This document shows, in pieces, positions 1,879-34,937 of a DNA stretch of 64,000 nucleotides (position 1 is the first letter of the stretch; every line of letters starts with the position of its first letter). The stretch covers positions 8,851 through 72,850 of the forward strand of contig JBDRCN010000001.1 of NCBI GenBank assembly GCA_043821705.1, read 5' to 3'. The translations under genes and the position numbers were made by a program. Source of the DNA: Candidatus Omnitrophota bacterium (lineage in GTDB: Bacteria; Omnitrophota; Gorgyraeia; Gorgyraeales; Gorgyraeaceae). Under the pieces are notes generated by a model. That model did no database searches. It saw nothing but the letters and a program-made list of their open reading frames with translations, and had not been told where the DNA came from.

Positions 1879-2136
1879 GATAAGTGTTTAAAAAAAATCC
1901 CCACTGATGCCGCAAGAAAGAACGTTTTACGAACCCTTCGATCAAGTGGGCTCCTTCTTAGATATTTATTGTTTCCCTGCTCAGTTCCTGCAAGGCCTAC
2001 AGCCATATCTAAAGTCAGGCTCCCATTAACATAGTGTTGGTTCAAAAACTCTTCATTCCTGCGCACATCGTAGGGACAGTTTAATTATAACATAACTTTG
2101 ACTGTAAAGCAAAATCTTAAAATAACTCCCTTACTT

Positions 2137-18730: not shown

Positions 18731-19061
18731 TTTCTAGGTCCTTTTGGACTTCAGGGCCTCTAGTATTTTCTTGCAGGCTTTGAGCCAATATGACAATATC
18801 TAAAGGTCTATTTAAAACATGCTTGTTTAATCTATACGCTTCTCTTAAAAGGCGCCTGTAGCGATTCCTTAGAACTGAATTTTTATTACATAAGCGCTTG
18901 CTTATTACAAAAGCAACCCGCTTTTTAGGTAAGCCGTCATCTCTCTTATGGATATATAGCTTTAGGAACCTGCCTTTTATTGGGGTACCAGTACGGAAAA
19001 TATCCTTGATCTGGTCATATTTTCGTAGGCGTTCTTCTTTTAAGAAGGCGTTTCGCTTCAT
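18696..19061 (-). CDS. rnpA: RNase P protein component
   Basis: 121-aa basic ORF placed between rpmH and yidD. Confidence 0.85.
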   Translation of the reverse strand: MKRNAFLKEERLRKYDQIKDIFRTGTPIKGRFLKLYIHKRDDGLPKKRVAFVISKRLCNKNSVLRNRYRRLLREAYRLNKHVLNRPLDIVILAQSLQENTRGPEVQKDLENVFKKFIKKSD

Positions 19062-19198
19062 TAAACTGTAAGCTTTTTCTTGCCTTTTCGCCTTCGGCGC
19101 TTCAGTACTCTTCTGCCGTTAGCGCTTTTCATCTTGCGTCTAAAACCATGCTTACGCTTACGTTTTAAATTGCTTTTCCTGGTAAGATTCTTTTTCAC
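19061..19198 (-). CDS. rpmH: 50S ribosomal protein L34 (GTG start; absent from ORF track because <60 aa)
   Basis: Reverse-complement translation gives [45 protein letters not shown]. Its stop overlaps the rnpA ATG by 1 nt. Confidence 0.9.
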
Positions 19199-25362: not shown

Positions 25363-28300
25363 ATGTCGCATTTTATGCTCCATAAGCCAAGCGCTCGTAA
25401 AATGTACACACAAAATGAAAAATTAGTCCCAGTCTATATTGAAGATGAAATGAAGAATTCCTATATTACGTATGCAATGAGCGTAATAGTAGGAAGAGCT
25501 CTTCCTGATGTCAGGGATGGTCTAAAGCCAGTACATAGAAGGATCCTCTATGCAATGAGAGAGCTGGGGCTGGAACATAGCAAGGCTTATAAAAAATCAG
25601 CCAGGATCGTTGGAGAATGCTTTGTAAAAGATACTCTGGTATTGACACAAAAGGGCCTGGTCCCTATTCAGGAAATCGAGCGGGGCGACAAGGTATTCAC
25701 GCAAAACGCGGCAAGGAGTGTTAGCGAGTTATACGAGATGCCAAAGAGAGAACTCCTTAAAATCACACTGGAAAACGGTACCAGCAACATAGCTACATTT
25801 TCGCAAAAATTTAAGGTATTGAATAAAAATCTAGAGTTTGTATGGAAAGAGGCAAAGGAACTCAATAAAAATGATTATATTGTTATAAGAGCGCATTATC
25901 CTGAAATTAAAGATATGGCAGGTTTGAAGCGCTCGGCAGCAAGGCATCCGTTTTATTTGAATGAAGATATAGCGTATATTTTAGGGCTTTTAATATCAGA
26001 TGGCTGGATCGAGAGGCCCAACGGAAGGCAGCGGAACAGGATGTGCTTTTATTCTGCCAATAGAAAAGTTATGGAGAAAGTGAGTTCGATGTTCGAAAGA
26101 GCGTTTGGTTATAGGCCGAATATCGAGGAGAAGATACATAAAGGAACCACAAAGGACGGCAAGCCATTAAAGAAGGGATATTCAGTAAGGATTAATAGGC
26201 AGGCTATAAATGATTTCTTTGCGGCAAATTTTCACTTGGAAGGACTTAAGGCGAAAACCAAGATAATCCCGCAACAGATATTTGTTTCTCCAAAGAGAAT
26301 AATATTTGCTTTTGTTGCGGGGCTTCTTGAAGGAGATGGCAGCATTCATCGCGGAAGAAATGTTGTACATTATGGATCTATTTCAGAGAAATTGATAGAT
26401 GGTTTGGCAGTGCTTTTACAGCACCAGGGTATTTTTGGCAGGAAATACAAGGCAAGATCTTCAGCGTCTAGTAGTTATATAGGAGGCAGGCTAGTTGCAC
26501 GCAGAGAGGTTTTTTATAGCTTGGAATTCAGAAGCTCTAACGCATTACTATTAGCGTCCAATATTAATCTTGTTGATAAAAAGAAGAACGCCAGGCTGCG
26601 CAACCTTTTTACCAATAGAATAATTCCTTCGGGCCAGGATATTATACCTTATGGAGGGGCCAGGATATTTGAAGAACTTAGCGCAAGACATATAGGAGGC
26701 GGCTGGTACAAGGGGGTTAATGGCAGCAAATTTAAACAAGGCATAAAATATCCTGATGGAGCTAAGATAAGATATTCGCATAATCTTCTAGAAAAACCTT
26801 TGAGAAAATCTCAAGTTCTAGAATGGGGGATTAAAGAAAAATTAGAAAGATTAGGATCGCCCCTCTCTGTTTTTATTGACAATATAGTAGATAATAAAAT
26901 TTATTTCTCGAAAGTTTCATCGGTAGAAAAATCAGCCCCGCAAGTAACATACGATATCCAGGTTGAACAGGATCACGAGTTTATCGCAAACGGGATGATT
27001 TCTCATAATTGTCTTGGTAAATATCATCCTCATGGAGATACAGCAGTATATGACTCGCTAGTCAGGATGGTGCAGGATTTTTCATTGAGGTATCCTTTGG
27101 TGGATGGACAGGGGAACTTCGGGTCTGTCGACGGTGATGCTCCTGCAGCAATGAGGTATACTGAAGCTCGCATGGCATCTATCGCGGATGAGATGCTCTC
27201 GGATATTGACAAAGGCACAGTAGATTTTACTCCTAATTTCGATGAAACACTGGAAGAACCGACTGTCCTGCCTGCGAAATTGCCAGGGCTATTAGTAAAT
27301 GGCTCCAGCGGTATAGCTGTGGGCATGGCAACTAATGTCCCACCACATAATCTATCTGAGATAGTGGATGCTATTGTAAAATTGATCAGCGACCCAGGGT
27401 GTTCTATTAAAGATCTGATGAAAATTGTTAAAGGGCCTGATTTTCCAACAGGAGGGATCATCTGCGGCAGAGAAGGCATTAAAAAAGCTTATGAAACAGG
27501 CAGAGGCCTTTTAAAGCTTCATGCAAAAGCAGCAATAGAGCAGCAAAAAGGCAACAAAGAAGCTATTATTATTACAGAGATCCCTTACCAAGTAAATAAA
27601 TCAAAGCTCATTGAGAATATGGCAAGCCTTGTACAGGATAAAAAAATAGAAGGCATTGCTGACATAAGGGACGAGTCCGATAAAGATGGTATGAGGATAG
27701 TAGTCGATCTAAAGAGAGACCAGAACGCACAGATCGTTTTAAACCAACTCTATAAACGTACCCAGATGGAGATGACCTTTGGCGTCATCACATTAGCATT
27801 AGTGGATCTCAGGCCAAAGGTATTGAACTTAAAAGAAGTACTTGAATTATACATAAAACATAGAATTGAGATCATAAAAAGAAGAACACAATTCGAACTG
27901 AATAAAGCTGAAAGAAGAGCTCATATATTAGAAGGGCTGAAAATAGCAATAGACAATCTCACTAAGATCATAAAGACCATAAGAGAATCAAAAGATCCTA
28001 AGATAGCCAAAGACGCATTAATGAAAAATTTTGATCTTTCAGAGGTCCAGGCGCAGGCTATTTTAGAGATGCAGCTTCAGCGTCTTACTGCACTTGAGAG
28101 AGGGAAGATAGAAAAAGAATACCTGGAGCTATTAAAGAGAATAGAGATGTTAAAATCTATATTAAAGAGCGAGAAGAAGATATTAGAGATCATAAAGGAC
28201 GAAGCATTAGAGGTTAAGAAAAAATACGGGGATGAACGTAGAACTGAAATAGTAGCGAGGCAGGAAGAGATCGAGATAGAAGACCTGATAGCAGAAGAAG

Positions 28301-29223
28301 ACATGGTTATCACAATAAGCCATTCTGGTTATATAAAACGCCTCCCAACAGGTTCTTACAAAAAACAAAAACGAGGGGGAGTAGGCGTAACAGGCATGGA
28401 TATGAAAGATGAAGATTTTATCGAGCATCTTTTTATCGCTTCTACTCATGAATATATACTATTTTTTACTAATCAAGGGAGAGTGCATTGGTTAAAGGTA
28501 TATGAGATACCACAGGCTTCCCGCTCCGGAAGAGGCAAGGCAGTAGTAAACTTATTACAGCTTTCATCAGGGGAAAAGATCTCTTCTTATGTCAGGGTAA
28601 AAGAATTCAAAGAAGGATTATATCTTGTGATGGCTACCAAGAACGGCCTTATCAAGAAGACAGATCTGATGGCTTATTCAAACCCAAGAAAAGGCGGGAT
28701 AATAGGCATTACTATCGAGAAGGATGACGAACTTATAGAAGTTAAGTGGACAGATGGCAGCCATGAAATAATGTTGGCGTCCAAAGAAGGAAAGGCTATC
28801 TGTTTTTCAGAAAAGCAAGTCAGGGATATGGGTAGAGGCGCAAAAGGAGTAAAAGGGATAAAGCTTGGTAAGAAGGATGAGCTTATAGCAATGGACATAG
28901 CGAGAAAAGACGCGACTGTCTTAACAGTTGCTTCTCAAGGTTTTGCAAAGCGTACATCTATAAACGAATATAGAAAACAGTCTAGGGGCGGCAAGGGTGT
29001 AAAGAATATAAGCGTTACGAGTAAAACCGGAGAAGCTGTAGGTGTATTGATGGTACATGACAATGACGAGCTTATGGTCATGACTGTGAAAGGAATGATC
29101 GTAAGGTTCGCTGTGAAAGATGTCCGCGCTACAGGCAGAAGCACCCAGGGGGTCCGCATAATAAAACTTGATCCTGGCGACAAGGTAGCAAATGTTGCTC
29201 GAGTGATCCCAGAAGAAGAATAG
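25363..29223 (+). CDS. gyrA: DNA gyrase subunit A containing an in-frame intein (mature GyrA is 822 aa)
   Basis: 1286-aa ORF. Extein motifs: [44 protein letters not shown]. The true start is probably M14 (25402). Confidence 0.95.
25618..27009 (+). other. GyrA intein (464 aa) with LAGLIDADG homing-endonuclease domain
   Basis: Begins with Cys ([10 protein letters not shown]) right after RIVGE and ends in ...ISHN followed by +1 Cys ([10 protein letters not shown]). Two LAGLIDADG blocks are present: [11 protein letters not shown] and [10 protein letters not shown]. Confidence 0.9.
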
Positions 29224-29410: not shown

Positions 29411-29487
29411 TTTCTTTTATCTCAAAGTTGTTGACGCATCAACATCAAATATACTATAATCTAGAAAATAACCTACGGAGGTGTTGT

Positions 29488-30273
29488 ATGAAAAGACTTG
29501 TGATAGTCTTTACTGCTTTATTTTTATTATGCGCGTTTACTGTCTATGTAAATGCTGCGCCTGTGACTTGTCCTGCCAGTGTTAAAGAGATGAAAGGGAA
29601 TGATTATATAGACAAGGATTCTAACATAGCTTTTTTAGTATCTCTCGAATCTGATTTTATAACTGAGAAAGACTTAGACGAAAGCGATGGACAAGTAGAA
29701 GGAACTATGCACGTAGGCAAATTAGTAGTAAGCTTTGACAAAGTTGATTTTTATGCACTTTTAGGGGGAACTGGGAACCTAGAATACAGCGCAAGCATTT
29801 CTGGTGCGAATGTTTTATATGAATTAGAAGATAAATTTTTATGGGGCCTAGGAGCAAGTGGTCTGATCAAGAAATGGGACAAACACGGTATACAGCTTTT
29901 TGGGGACCTTTCTTATAGAACAACAGGCGATATGGAATATGACATAGTGACTTTAAATGGTACCCAGTTTTCTAAATCACAGCTTACACCTGCGACAGAT
30001 GCCAAATATGAAGAATGGCAGATAGCTCTTAGTGTGGCAAAAAAGTTCCAGTATATGACACCTTACGCTGGTATTAAATATTCAAATCTTGATGCATCAG
30101 CTGATGTAACGATCTCCAGTACTCGCTACGCATTAAGCGATGCTGAAAACGATAATCCTGTGGGTATATTTTTAGGGTGCGCTCTCATGCCTTTGGACAA
30201 TATGTCCATAGACCTAGAAGGCCGCTTTATTGACGAAGAGGCTTTTAGCGTATCTCTGAACTACGAGTTCTAA
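29488..30273 (+). CDS. Outer-membrane beta-barrel protein (signal peptide, C-terminal ...LNYEF)
   Basis: RBS ggagg lies upstream of the ATG at 29488; the track ORF starts at 29428. The terminal aromatic Phe is typical of BamA substrates. Confidence 0.65.
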   Translation: MKRLVIVFTALFLLCAFTVYVNAAPVTCPASVKEMKGNDYIDKDSNIAFLVSLESDFITEKDLDESDGQVEGTMHVGKLVVSFDKVDFYALLGGTGNLEYSASISGANVLYELEDKFLWGLGASGLIKKWDKHGIQLFGDLSYRTTGDMEYDIVTLNGTQFSKSQLTPATDAKYEEWQIALSVAKKFQYMTPYAGIKYSNLDASADVTISSTRYALSDAENDNPVGIFLGCALMPLDNMSIDLEGRFIDEEAFSVSLNYEF

Positions 30274-30421
30274 TGGATGAAGAAAAAACATCGTTTTTTT
30301 AGGCTGAACAGGGTAAGAGCCTATTTATTGGTAAAAAACATAAAAGAAAGACTAAGAAAACAGGAAGCAAAGCTTAGAAAAAACCATAAAGCCTAAGAGA
30401 TATATTCTCTAACTTTCCTCT

Positions 30422-30450
30422 TTACAAAGTCTTACCCGCCTTGTATAATA
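30422..30450 (+). promoter_or_regulatory. Near-consensus sigma70 promoter TTTACA-17-TATAAT
   Basis: The sequence ctttacaaagtcttacccgccttgtataat lies about 125 nt upstream of hisG. Confidence 0.6.
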
Positions 30451-30576
30451 ACTTCGCTATGCGGAAAAAGGCTAAAAAGCCCAAAATACGTAAGTCTTGG
30501 TCTATAAACCCTAAGACTAAGGTAAAAAAGAGTAAAAAACTTTATAGTAGGCATGAAAAAAAGAAGGAATTAAAAG

Positions 30577-31449
30577 ATGAAGTTAAAATTTGGTCTTCCA
30601 AAAGGCAGCCTCCAAGAAGCTACAACTAGGATGTTCAAAAAAGCAGGTTTTAATGTATCTATAAGCTCAAGAAGCTATTTCCCATCTATAGATGATAAAT
30701 ATATAGAGCCTTTTCTCCTAAGAGCTCAGGAGATGGCTAGGTATGTTGCTGATGGCGTGCTTGACTGCGGCATAACAGGAGATGATTGGTCAAATGAGAG
30801 CGGTAGAGAGGTCGTCAAGGTCTGTAAGCTTATATATAGCAAGCAAGGCCTAAGGCCAGTCCGGTGGGTATTAGCAGTACCTAATGACTCTAAGATAAAA
30901 AGTGTAAAAGACATGAAAGGAAAGAGAATAGCAACAGAGCTGGTTAATGTGACGAAAGAATATTTTAAGAAAAAAAAGATAGATATTGATATAGAATTCA
31001 GCTGGGGAGCAACTGAGGCAAAGGTCAGCGCAGGATTAGTGGACGCTATAGTAGAACTGACTGAGACAGGGGCAAGCCTTAGAGCAAATAATCTGAGGAT
31101 AGTTGATACTGTTTGTGAATCAACGACTCTTATAGTTGCAAATAAAAAAAGCTGGGAAAACAATTGGAAAAGACAGAAGATAGAACAGATAGCGCTTCTT
31201 CTCCAAGGCGCATTAGCTGCTGAAGAAAAAGTAGGACTTAAGATGAACATACAAGAAAAGGACCTAAAAAAGATCCTTGCTATCTTGCCAGCTATGAAGA
31301 AGCCGACCATCTCAAAGCTTACAGAAGCAAATTGGTGTGCTATTGAGACGATCGTTGATGAGGCTATAGTCAGAAAGATCATACCAGAACTAAAAAAAGA
31401 AGGGGCTCAAGGGATCATAGAGTACCCTCTTAATAAAGTAATAGATTAA
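30577..31449 (+). CDS. hisG: ATP phosphoribosyltransferase, long form
   Basis: 290-aa ORF beginning [12 protein letters not shown] with a C-terminal regulatory domain. Confidence 0.85.
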
Positions 31450-31471
31450 AAAAATTTCAGGAGGTAGTAAA

Positions 31472-31567
31472 ATGCCTTGTGGGCGCAAAAGAAAACGACG
31501 TAAGATATCTACACATAAGAGAAAAAAGAGACGAAGAAGAGACAGACACAAGAAGAAGAATAGATAA
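31472..31567 (+). CDS. Tiny highly basic protein, ribosomal bS22-like (31 aa)
   Basis: aggaggtagtaaa precedes the ATG. The translation MPCGRKRKRRKISTHKRKKRRRRDRHKKKNR* resembles the mycobacterial/Bacteroidetes bS22 pattern KRRKxMSxKKHRKLLRRTR. Confidence 0.5.
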   Translation: MPCGRKRKRRKISTHKRKKRRRRDRHKKKNR

Positions 31568-31601
31568 GATAGTTTAGTTTAATATTAGATTATCTTCATC
31601 A

Positions 31602-33167
31602 GTGATAATGACTTCTAGAACGTTTTTTATATCAGCATTAATTGGAATCTTAGCTATAGAGCTATGCGGCTGTGCATCTAGCGGAAGGCTTAAAAAGACT
31701 GCAATAAAAAGCCCTACGAAAGAGATCAAAAGGATAGCAGAAGGGAAAAGAACATTCCCCCCGATATCCCCTAAGGCCTATGCCCATTATTCGATGGGCA
31801 TGATATATGACAATGAAGGCGCTACAGATAAGGCATTGACAGAATATCTAAAGGCTAGTGATCTTGATCCTGTCTCGAGTCAGATCTATTATCAATTAGG
31901 CGCTTCATATGTAAAGCTTGGCAAAATTAAAGAGGCCATGGCTTCTTTAAGCAAGGCAATTGAATATAATGAGTTTCATGCAAAGGCAAGGTTCTTGCTG
32001 GCACTTGTATACATGTCAGAGAAGCGTTTTGATGAAGCTAGCAAGCAGTATGAAGAGATCTTAAAGCATGACCCAGGGGATCTAGCTGTCTTGACATCTC
32101 TTGCTGATCTGTATATTTTAGGGGATGATCTAGAAAAGGCCATAGGGTTATATGAAAACCTGGTCAAAGAAAAAGAGGATTCTTCAATAATCCATTTTAA
32201 TCTGGCAATACTTTACACCAGGGCATCTAGGATAGAAGATGGCATAAAAGAACTTAAAAAAGCAATAGAATTAAAACCAGATTACCTTGAAGCTCATCTA
32301 GCGCTTGCTGTACTTTATGAGCTGGATAAGAACCTGGGGGATGCTACAAAATATTATAAAGAGGCCTTGAAATTAGACCCTACTAATACTAGGCTTCGTC
32401 GTCAGCTGGGGCAACTTTATTTTAGAATGGACGAGCCTGAAGAAGCAATAGTAGAATACAGGTCTTTGTTAAAATATTATCCAGAAGACGTGGTGCCTTA
32501 TATAGAGCTTAGTTATATGTATGTCTCGATCTCCAGGATAGAGGATGCGATAAAAGTCCTGGAAGAGGCATTTATATTGGACCAGAGAAGAGAAGATGTG
32601 CATATTGCGCTGGGTTTTTGTTACAATGAAAAAGGGGATAAGGCAAGGGCAATAGAAGAATACGAAAAGAGCATAGAGATAGATTCTTTTAATCCAAAAG
32701 CCTACTTTTATCTGGGGGCCATGCTTGAAGAGTCTGGGAAAACAAAAGAAGCAATAGAGAGATTAAAGAAGGCAGTAGAACTTGACCCATATGATGCAGA
32801 GTCGCTTAATTATCTTGGTTATATTTATGCTGAAGAGAACATGGCGCTTGATGAAGCAGGCAGTTTAATAAAAAGGGCTTTGGAATTAGACCCTGACAAT
32901 GGGGCTTATATAGATAGTTTAGGATGGGTCTATTTTAAACAAGGCCTGTTCGAGGAAGCTAAAGAAAATCTTGAAAAAGCGAGCGGGATCATTGGAGAAG
33001 ATCCTGTGATCTATGATCATCTTGGGGAGGTATATTTTACGATCGGTAGCTACGATAAAGCAAAAGAGGCTTGGGAAAGATCCCTAAACTTAAAACACAG
33101 TGAGGATGTTAAGAAAAAGATAGATAAACTAGAAGAGAACCACAACGTGAGGATAGATAAAAAATGA
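31602..33167 (+). CDS. TPR-repeat protein with signal/lipoprotein-like N-terminus
   Basis: 521-aa ORF with more than 10 TPR units. Confidence 0.8.
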   Translation: MIMTSRTFFISALIGILAIELCGCASSGRLKKTAIKSPTKEIKRIAEGKRTFPPISPKAYAHYSMGMIYDNEGATDKALTEYLKASDLDPVSSQIYYQLGASYVKLGKIKEAMASLSKAIEYNEFHAKARFLLALVYMSEKRFDEASKQYEEILKHDPGDLAVLTSLADLYILGDDLEKAIGLYENLVKEKEDSSIIHFNLAILYTRASRIEDGIKELKKAIELKPDYLEAHLALAVLYELDKNLGDATKYYKEALKLDPTNTRLRRQLGQLYFRMDEPEEAIVEYRSLLKYYPEDVVPYIELSYMYVSISRIEDAIKVLEEAFILDQRREDVHIALGFCYNEKGDKARAIEEYEKSIEIDSFNPKAYFYLGAMLEESGKTKEAIERLKKAVELDPYDAESLNYLGYIYAEENMALDEAGSLIKRALELDPDNGAYIDSLGWVYFKQGLFEEAKENLEKASGIIGEDPVIYDHLGEVYFTIGSYDKAKEAWERSLNLKHSEDVKKKIDKLEENHNVRIDKK

Positions 33168-33994
33168 AAAAAAGACCTCAGCTAAAAACATTGGAAAAAA
33201 TAGCCAGAGACATCCGTATTGAGATCGTGACTATGTTGCATTGTGCTGGTTCAGGCCATACAGGAGGGTCGCTTTCTTTGGTAGAGATATTGGTCAGTCT
33301 GTATTTTTATAAATTTAAATGTGAACCAGATAAACCGCTTTGCGACACTAGAGACATATTTATTTTATCAAAGGGCCATGGCTGTCCAGCGCTTTATTCA
33401 GTCCTAGCTCACATGAATTTTTTTGATAAAAAAGAATTATGCACTCTTAGACAGACAGGTACCCGTCTTCAGGGCCATCCTCAAAGAGGATTGCCTGGGA
33501 TAGAGGTTTCCAGTGGTTCTTTAGGCCAAGGCCTTTCCATAGCTAATGGTTTTGCACTAGGTTCCAGACTAAACAAAGATAGTAGAAATATCTATTGCGT
33601 AATGGGCGATGGAGAGCTTGATGAAGGCCAAGTCTGGGAAGCTGCTTTAACAAGTGCTCATCATAAACTAGACAAAGTGTGCGCTATAGTGGATTTTAAT
33701 AAGTTTCAAATAGACGGCCCAATAAAAGAAGTTAAAAATTTAGAACCCCTAGGTAAAAAGTGGCTTGCTTTTGGTTGGAATGTGATCGAAGTAAATGGGC
33801 ATAAGATAACTGAACTTATGGATGCATATGATAAAGCAGAAAAAGTAAAAGGTAGACCTACGATCATCCTAGCGCACACAGTCAAAGGAAAAGGTGTTTC
33901 TTTTTTTGAAAATCAGAACAAATATCATGGGGTTGCTCCTACAAAAGAAGAGCTGGAGAAAGCGATAAAAGAACTAACAAAAGAAGGTAATTAA
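33164..33994 (+). CDS. tktA: Transketolase, N-terminal (TPP-binding) subunit
   Basis: 276-aa ORF with GHTGGSLS and GDGELDEG motifs. Confidence 0.9.
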   Translation: MKKRPQLKTLEKIARDIRIEIVTMLHCAGSGHTGGSLSLVEILVSLYFYKFKCEPDKPLCDTRDIFILSKGHGCPALYSVLAHMNFFDKKELCTLRQTGTRLQGHPQRGLPGIEVSSGSLGQGLSIANGFALGSRLNKDSRNIYCVMGDGELDEGQVWEAALTSAHHKLDKVCAIVDFNKFQIDGPIKEVKNLEPLGKKWLAFGWNVIEVNGHKITELMDAYDKAEKVKGRPTIILAHTVKGKGVSFFENQNKYHGVAPTKEELEKAIKELTKEGN

Positions 33995-33998
33995 TCTT

Positions 33999-34937
33999 AT
34001 GGATAAAAAACCAACAAGAGATGGGTTTGGCGAGGGAGTAGTAGAGCTAGGAGAACAGAGAGAGGACATCGTAGTTCTTTCAGCAGACCTAACAGAGTCT
34101 ACGAGAGCAGGATGGTTTAAGAAGAGATTTCCTGATAGATTTTTTTCTATGGGAGTGAGCGAACAGGACATGATCTCTACTGCAGCAGGGCTTGCTCTTT
34201 CAGGTAAGGTGCCTTTTGCGTGTACGTTTGGCGTATTTGCTGCTGGCAGGGCTTGGGACCAGATAAGAGTGTCAGTAGCGTATATGAATTTAAATGTAAA
34301 TATAATTGGTACCCATGGGGGTATTTCTGTAGGCCCAGATGGCCCAACTCATCAGGCAATAGAAGAGATAACGCTTATGAGAGTTTTACCCAATATGACA
34401 GTGATAGTCCCTTGCGATGCTGTAGAAGCAAAGAAAGCGACTATTGAAAGCGCTTCACTCGAAGGGCCGTGTTATCATAGATTAGGCAGAAGCGGGGTCC
34501 CTATCATCACAAAACCCGAAGATGATTTTAAGATAGGTAAGGCCTCGATCCTGAAAGAAGGAAGTGATGTTTCGATCTTTGCTTGCGGGCAGGAAGTATA
34601 CGAAGCATTGTTAGCGCACGATATCCTAAAAAAAGATGGGATATCGTCAAGTGTTATCAATCTACATACATTAAAACCAATTGACCGAGACGCGATCATA
34701 AAAGAAGCTAAAAAGACAGGAGCGATAGTTACTGCAGAGGAGCATTCAATATTAGGCGGACTTGGAGGCGCTGTCAGTGAAGTGATAGTCCAAGAGTTCC
34801 CTGTGCCTATGGAATTTATAGGAGTCAATGATAGGTTTGGTGAATCAGGTTCTGCAGAAGAACTCTTCAAGATATTTGGCCTTACTGCAGAGGATATTGC
34901 TAAAAAAGCAAAAAAGGCCATCAGTAGAAAGAAGTAA
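33999..34937 (+). CDS. tktB: Transketolase, C-terminal (pyrimidine-binding) subunit
   Basis: 312 aa, in the split two-gene arrangement. Confidence 0.9.
   Translation: MDKKPTRDGFGEGVVELGEQREDIVVLSADLTESTRAGWFKKRFPDRFFSMGVSEQDMISTAAGLALSGKVPFACTFGVFAAGRAWDQIRVSVAYMNLNVNIIGTHGGISVGPDGPTHQAIEEITLMRVLPNMTVIVPCDAVEAKKATIESASLEGPCYHRLGRSGVPIITKPEDDFKIGKASILKEGSDVSIFACGQEVYEALLAHDILKKDGISSSVINLHTLKPIDRDAIIKEAKKTGAIVTAEEHSILGGLGGAVSEVIVQEFPVPMEFIGVNDRFGESGSAEELFKIFGLTAEDIAKKAKKAISRKK

Follow-up and report, generated by a model that had tools for sequence, protein, structure and literature searches.

The stretch of DNA analysed here (the window, 64 kb) belongs to a genome of Candidatus Omnitrophota. 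It has a GC content of 39% and harbours 550 open reading frames (ORFs) of at least 25 aa. Among their products the highest proportion of Lys and Arg (65%) is found in a peptide of 31 residues, MPCGRKRKRRKISTHKRKKRRRRDRHKKKNR, encoded between an ATG at 31472-31474 and a TAA at 31565-31567. The initial annotation had placed this 31-codon ORF directly after hisG and behind an aggagg ribosome binding site with a 7-nt spacer. Coordinates and translation were exactly as claimed, the AGGAGG was read at this distance, and the identity of hisG was confirmed by TIGR00070 and TIGR03455, the latter a model of the HisG C-terminal domain. The hisG gene ends with a TAA at 31447-31449 and the ATG of the ORF follows 22 nt further on. 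Because of an in-frame TAG at 31442-31444, upstream of this ATG, the N-terminus cannot be much longer. A terminator scan called no terminator-like site between the two genes, which suggests that they are most likely co-transcribed. Downstream, the ORF is followed by a gene for a TPR-repeat protein, whose N-terminus we take by eye to be lipoprotein-like, and by split transketolase genes (Table 1). The 16S rRNA gene of this genome is absent from the 64-kb window. The second most K/R-rich ORF of the window, 19061..19198 on the minus strand, was recognised by eye as what is presumably bL34.

Table 1. Features at and around the small ORF downstream of hisG (positions within the window)
Feature	Position	Strand	Evidence and remarks
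hisG, long-form ATP phosphoribosyltransferase, upstream neighbour	30577..31449	+	TIGR00070 182.9 bits, TIGR03455 110.7 bits
Shine-Dalgarno motif AGGAGG	31459..31464	+	Read in sequence; spacer 7 nt (tagtaaa)
Putative bS22 gene, 31 aa, Bacteroidota/Borrelia type	31472..31567	+	ORF, PDB matches, shuffles, conservation
Predicted AT-rich 16-bp hairpin	31563..31600	+	MFE fold; overlaps the stop codon of the putative bS22 gene, its end lying shortly ahead of the next gene
TPR-repeat protein, conserved downstream neighbour	31608..33167	+	TPR-family matches; split transketolase genes come next
tktN and tktC, transketolase split into N-terminal and C-terminal subunit genes	33164..33994, 33999..34937	+	

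With 550 ORFs of at least 25 aa in the window, an ORF of 31 codons alone is no evidence for a gene. This ORF stands out from chance because its product specifically resembles solved bS22 chains and is conserved at the protein level in relatives. When MPCGRKRKRRKISTHKRKKRRRRDRHKKKNR was searched with phmmer against all PDB chain sequences, exactly three matches were obtained, each of which had been modelled into 30S density as bS22. These were 8FMW_V from Borrelia burgdorferi (E 1.2e-8, 23/28 residues identical; PMC10618245), 7JIL_5 from Flavobacterium johnsoniae (E 9e-7, 21/29; PMC7797042) and 9I5V_10 from Porphyromonas gingivalis (E 2e-5, 20/29; PMC12123416). All three alignments were ungapped, full-length and started from Met1. 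Since basic peptides could match by composition alone, we scored 5000 composition-preserving shuffles of MPCGRKRKRRKISTHKRKKRRRRDRHKKKNR by Smith-Waterman. The observed scores were 131, 118 and 113, against shuffle means of 43-45 and maxima of 73-79 (z 12-15). The score of 131 compares with a shuffle mean of 45 and a peak of 79, and no shuffle had more than 15 identities, against 23 observed.

Furthermore, we built a profile from an alignment of 26 distinct Omnitrophota bS22 peptides. Searched against the whole PDB, it retrieved only 8FMW_V, 7JIL_5 and 9I5V_10, with E-values of 1e-11 to 8e-11. Eight positions (M1, P2, K6, K11, H15, K19, R25 and H26) are invariant in these 26 peptides, and all eight are also present in all three solved chains. 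The window peptide carries the complete bS22 motif MPxG[KR]KRK..K[IVM]xxHKRKK..RHKK, and its 31 residues and 65% K/R fall within the about 28-36 residues and >55% that define the type. Sequence similarity, size and motif, and purifying selection together with translation signals (see below) all place the peptide within the Bacteroidota/Spirochaetota type of bS22, and they support that the ORF encodes a bS22 orthologue of the Bacteroidota/Borrelia type. The initial annotation had likewise called the peptide bS22-like, but on the pattern KRRKxxSxxKxRKxxRRxR. This pattern is that of the mycobacterial type; the real match is to MPxG[KR]KRK..K[IVM]xxHKRKK..RHKK of the Bacteroidota/Borrelia type, and the proposed likeness to the mycobacterial protein and mS38 turned out to be only faint.

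This faintness is also seen in the family models. In an NCBIfam scan of MPCGRKRKRRKISTHKRKKRRRRDRHKKKNR, ribo_bS22 (NF047430, cutoff 34 bits) gave no match even at E<=10. The Pfam model COX24_C (PF08213) reached 7.7 bits (E 4.5), below its gathering threshold of 23 bits, with profile positions 6-30 aligned to peptide positions 6-30. The absence of a family hit had been named beforehand as a result that would speak against bS22, but control searches demonstrated that this criterion is misleading. NF047430 did not match the Borrelia, Flavobacterium and Porphyromonas bS22 proteins, whereas a mycobacterial-type sequence scored 62.6 bits. COX24_C gave no match for Borrelia and Flavobacterium, 11.7 bits for Porphyromonas and 46.2 bits for the mycobacterial type. 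The family membership of the mycobacterial-type control was verified by its 62.6-bit match. Because the structurally validated proteins of Borrelia and Flavobacterium fail the same models, the NCBIfam and Pfam negatives are uninformative, and NF047430 and COX24_C cover only the actinobacterial/mitochondrial branch.

Actinobacterial bS22, mS38/COX24_C and eukaryotic eL41 share the size class and the extreme basicity of MPCGRKRKRRKISTHKRKKRRRRDRHKKKNR, but actinobacterial bS22 and mS38 showed no significant sequence relationship to it with NF047430, PF08213, hhalign or the PDB profile search. Aligned by hhalign to the mycobacterial-type sequence, the Omnitrophota profile gave a probability of 9% (E 0.0036), in register from 6-25 to 6-25, and no mycobacterial chain was retrieved when this profile was searched against the PDB even at E<=10. 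Any link to the mycobacterial/mS38 type would therefore be faint at the sequence level. The equivalence of the two bS22 branches comes from published structural superpositions, in which the Flavobacterium, Borrelia and Porphyromonas proteins occupy the same rRNA pocket as the bS22/mS38 class (PMC7797042, PMC10618245, PMC12123416), and not from the sequence tests performed here.

The closest solved relative is Borrelia burgdorferi bS22 (BB0822, PDB 8FMW chain V; PMC10618245). It has the N-terminal MPCGRKRK, the KISTHKRKK and the RHKK in common with MPCGRKRKRRKISTHKRKKRRRRDRHKKKNR, and Lys and Arg make up about 61-65% of both proteins. The Borrelia protein has 28 aa compared to 31 in the window, the difference being three extra C-terminal residues (KNR) in the latter. 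Both genes were left unannotated in their genomes. They differ in the start codon, which is GUG in Borrelia and ATG with a strong Shine-Dalgarno motif in the window, and in their surroundings, as only the window gene is located directly after hisG. The helical form of bS22 was observed in Borrelia, where the protein was seen in cryo-EM density, whereas it is predicted for the window protein. The Bacteroidota proteins (F. johnsoniae Fjoh_1533, 7JIL chain 5; P. gingivalis AAQ66340, 9I5V chain 10) align with MPCGRKRKRRKISTHKRKKRRRRDRHKKKNR in the same register from Met1, with the THKRKK core, the RHKKK tail and 20-21/29 identical residues. At position 3 they carry Ser or Asn where the window peptide has Cys, and their genes lie in a different genomic context. 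Translation initiation in Bacteroidota is largely not led by a Shine-Dalgarno sequence; in contrast, this sequence is clear at the Omnitrophota bS22 genes.

To examine the locus in relatives, the window hisG product was scanned against one genome per species, which yielded 80 loci. Most of them are from Candidatus Omnitrophota MAGs, and some are from TPA assemblies labelled Planctomycetia. The best one (L001) is 85% identical in HisG, and the distant tail consists of Nitrospirota, Desulfobacterota-like and other genomes. Using tblastn, 61/80 loci were found to have the same ORF immediately after hisG and in the same orientation, so that the conservation check proposed in the initial annotation came out positive. 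In these 61 sequences, hisG and the ORF are separated by 8-210 nt (median 25 nt). In addition, the order hisG-bS22-TPR-tktN-tktC is conserved, with the TPR gene found in 56, tktN in 41 and tktC in 37 of the 80 loci (tblastn). Identity to the window is 55-100% for the small peptide (mostly 71-97%), 62-85% for HisG and 29-64% for the TPR neighbour, the small peptide thus being conserved better than HisG and far better than the TPR protein. Because the hisG-bS22 linkage is tight and phylum-wide, it offers a handy anchor for locating the gene.

The remaining 19 loci lack this ORF after hisG. Fifteen belong to the non-Omnitrophota tail (L020, L039, L046, L062, L064-L069, L073-L075, L077 and L079), and in L044 the contig ends 2 nt past the hisG match. 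In L012, which is labelled Omnitrophota, and in the unlabelled L019 and L031, the TPR gene comes next after hisG and no such ORF separates the two; here the gene would be either located elsewhere or dispensable. In the metagenome contig L087, the bS22 ORF after hisG (from L087:3319 onward) reads MPCGRKRKRGNLLRF and then meets a stop codon. This early stop is probably due to a frameshift or an assembly error in an A-rich run, and the gene caller took a 79-aa ORF in another frame instead of bS22.

A near-identical peptide was found outside the hisG context (P0069, MPCGRKRKRRKIANHKRKKRRRLNRHKKKI; L081-L086:3001-3093). It comes from many contigs of a flagellated bacterium (124 blocks in the index) and is labelled hypothetical. 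Its gene follows a Band_7 gene, with miaA, hfq, cheW and flgM in the neighbourhood. Its location after the Band_7 gene suggests that the hisG linkage is specific to Omnitrophota and not intrinsic to bS22. Bacteria with bS22 of the MPCG type are probably spread over more phyla than reported.

We considered that the ORF is translated into something other than a ribosomal protein. It could act as a regulatory leader or coupling ORF for the TPR and transketolase genes, or its product could be a toxin, an antimicrobial peptide or a protamine-like binder of nucleic acids with no more than a resemblance to bS22. Its location 35-41 nt before the next gene, with a hairpin spanning the gap, would be in line with a leader function, and peptides rich in Arg and Lys are able to bind any nucleic acid. 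Moreover, bS22 of F. johnsoniae is present in 70S complexes but lost from isolated 30S subunits, indicating a loose association (PMC13000457). On the other hand, there is no need for a leader peptide to share 70-80% of its residues, all invariant positions among them, with proteins that Spirochaetota and Bacteroidota carry on their ribosomes. In relatives, bS22 and the TPR gene are separated by gaps of widely different length, and the occurrence of P0069 after a Band_7 gene in another lineage shows that the peptide can do without the TPR gene as a neighbour. We therefore regard a non-ribosomal product as improbable.

Next to the peptide, the DNA itself was compared. The window and L003 differ at 21 of the 81 nt of the first 27 codons without a single amino-acid change. 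All 10-15 differences to L001, L002, L005 and L006 are synonymous as well, including switches between CGN and AGR arginine codons, and one replacement (S13A) separates the window from L004. Over 1830 pairs of the 61 sequences, divergence per site at codon positions 1, 2 and 3 was 0.25, 0.21 and 0.55, respectively. Nucleotide identity across the 61 sequences was 67% within the ORF, whereas it was 26-28% in the 25-30 nt flanking it, which is the random level, and these flanks could not be aligned. The bS22 ORF is under purifying selection at the protein level. At the same distance upstream, most of the 60 relatives have a purine-rich motif resembling GGAG or GAGG, embedded in bases that show no conservation. 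The ORF of L022 starts with GTG, like that of Borrelia.

These comparisons also bear on the idea that an RNA is the conserved element, for instance an sRNA, a terminator or a structure in the 3' UTR of hisG. The 166 nt of 31445-31610 have an MFE fold somewhat more stable than that of shuffled sequences (z -2.36), and hairpins with z < -2 follow the stop codon of the ORF in 15/60 relatives, a quarter of them; GC-rich ones are found in L006, L007, L038, L063, L072, L078 and L080. The structure is predicted past the stop codon, outside the ORF; no Rfam family matches at this site, and both the third-codon-position bias and the synonymous arginine switches point to selection on the protein. As the reading frame and the peptide are preserved across relatives, we rejected an RNA element as the explanation, leaving it very little probability. 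The hairpin in the window (31563..31600) has no T-tract and was not called by the terminator scan, which found no canonical terminator after the ORF. It is possibly an element for transcript end, stability or attenuation, and we do not claim a functional role for it.

Least of all do we believe in a chance, untranslated open frame in an A-rich spacer, which the many ORFs of the window, the preference of a 39% GC genome for AAA, AAG and AGA codons and the other frames open in some relatives (the antisense frame in 43/61) could suggest, but which is refuted by a peptide conserved in 61/80 loci between unalignable flanks, by close-relative changes that are almost exclusively synonymous and unequal codon-position divergence, by the conserved Shine-Dalgarno motif, and by a similarity to solved bS22 chains far exceeding that of composition (z 12-15).

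Taken as bS22, the gene has largely escaped annotation. An exact copy of MPCGRKRKRRKISTHKRKKRRRRDRHKKKNR is absent from about 15 billion called proteins, and in an exact look-up the hisG product of the window was likewise absent from public collections. Among ten Omnitrophota orthologues from public MAGs, eight are absent from the same 15-billion called-protein collection, and the remaining two (33 and 36 aa) are labelled only 'hypothetical protein' (e.g. OQB08986.1). When 1.84 billion representative proteins were searched with phmmer, 63 relatives were obtained at E<=1e-3, none of them below 1e-10, which is the ceiling for so short a query. In 12 of the 14 relatives that were inspected, the protein was mis-called, with a spurious N-terminal extension or read-through past the stop codon. 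When the 40-codon in-frame stretch 31445-31564 was used for a homologue search, only 8 matches were found, all unnamed or hypothetical, and the source names for relatives were in general 'hypothetical protein' or none. This is in agreement with the statement in the initial annotation that gene callers routinely miss such genes. No curated HMM recognises bS22 of the Bacteroidota/Borrelia type, and a dedicated model of the MPxG type would mend this recurrent gap. The gap affects the inventories of ribosomal proteins on which phylogenomics and estimates of MAG completeness draw.

All in all, we consider it very probable that 31472-31567 on the plus strand is a real, translated gene of Candidatus Omnitrophota for ribosomal protein bS22. 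To our knowledge, the ribosome structures in which bS22 has been seen so far all come from Actinobacteria, Bacteroidota or Borrelia, and we know of no cultured representative of the Omnitrophota for ribosome work. In the literature that we searched, no paper named bS22 together with Omnitrophota. The assignment would extend bS22 to an uncultured phylum and supports the prediction of the Borrelia authors that the protein exists in other bacteria (PMC10618245). It is a real gene of an ordinary kind and, on account of that prediction, unsurprising to specialists.

For the predicted protein, AF2 gave a helix over residues 5-30 with a pLDDT of 88 and no bend resolved, which is weak evidence for a 31-mer. 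The helix fits the published helical bS22. A Foldseek search with it against the PDB returned nothing, as expected for one short helix. Regarding expression, ribosome binding and functional effect, we propose that bS22 is translated from its own Shine-Dalgarno site on an mRNA shared with hisG. The 31-residue product, 65% of which is Lys and Arg, would form a single alpha-helix, probably kinked as judged by homology. It would insert between h44 and h45 of the 16S rRNA, into a pocket to whose walls h2 and h27 also contribute and which is situated close to the decoding centre where the subunits meet, and its C-terminal lysines may reach H68/H70 of the 23S rRNA. In this position bS22 would neutralise rRNA charge, stabilise h44/h45 and add an intersubunit bridge.

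The proposed placement follows the solved structures. Borrelia bS22 is located in a pocket of 16S h2, h27, h44 and h45 and touches H68 of the 23S rRNA; its transcript is abundant, it is a candidate essential gene, and no other ribosomal protein of Borrelia escaped mass spectrometry (PMC10618245). The window peptide, of roughly 4 kDa, would be destroyed by trypsin. In Flavobacterium and Porphyromonas, bS22 is placed between h44 and h45 and touches H70, forming an extra intersubunit bridge (PMC7797042, PMC12123416). Deletion of bS22 in M. smegmatis raises the susceptibility to kanamycin, and Lys-16 of this protein contacts the h44 backbone (PMC10081302). In the register of the weak alignment described above, K16 of the window peptide would align with this lysine.

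A second conserved tiny basic ORF was observed directly upstream of hisG, at 30459..30629 (+), inside a TTG-started ORF at 30441..30629. Its product carries the motif K[IVL]R[KR]xWxINP[KR]T[KR][IV]KxSKKxYSR, which is kept in 12-13 of the 80 hisG loci, distant ones included. The metagenome contigs L087 (2151-2288) and L088 (442-579) carry counterparts, each called as a protein of 45 aa, whose ORF shares 4 nt with the start of hisG. The product of 30459..30629 had no significant match in PDB, Pfam or NCBIfam, and a set of 5.8 billion clusters contained only 3 relatives, none of them named. The best sigma-70-like site of the region (TTTACA-17-TATAAT, 30421..30449) ends 10 nt before its ATG. The product may be another small protein missed by annotation, one that binds nucleic acids or associates with the ribosome. 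With bS22 downstream, hisG of Omnitrophota has a conserved gene for a putative tiny basic protein on either side, and both of these mostly go uncalled. Omnitrophota are ultra-small bacteria. It is conceivable, but rather unlikely, that the upstream protein of about 45 aa is a second undescribed ribosomal or ribosome-associated protein and that the hisG operon ties the supply of accessory ribosomal proteins to histidine and PRPP-ATP metabolism.

Further upstream, a third small basic ORF is present at 30277..30396 (+). It encodes 39 aa, MKKKHRFFRLNRVRAYLLVKNIKERLRKQEAKLRKNHKA, that are 51-67% conserved only in L001, L002, L003 and L005 and have no match in PDB, Pfam or NCBIfam. It is preceded by an ORF of 281 aa at 29428..30273 (+) with a signal-peptide-like N-terminus. 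Its product gave a weak partial match to PF01308 (Chlamydia major outer membrane protein; 26.6 bits, residues 189-227) and was absent from all 80 related loci in a tblastn search. Elsewhere in the window, a 6S RNA (SsrS) is located at 1894..2079 (-), with a full-length match to Rfam RF00013 of 94.4 bits. The gyrA gene at 25363..29223 (+), with a product of 1286 aa, is interrupted by an intein of about 480 aa, an insert that we take by eye to be like a LAGLIDADG-type homing endonuclease. GyrA models align only over their first ~50 positions and from residue ~531 of the product onward. Further matches of the product are to TIGR01443, the C-terminal splicing motif of inteins (residues 529-550), and to the model 'GyrA_w_intein' (NF038098).
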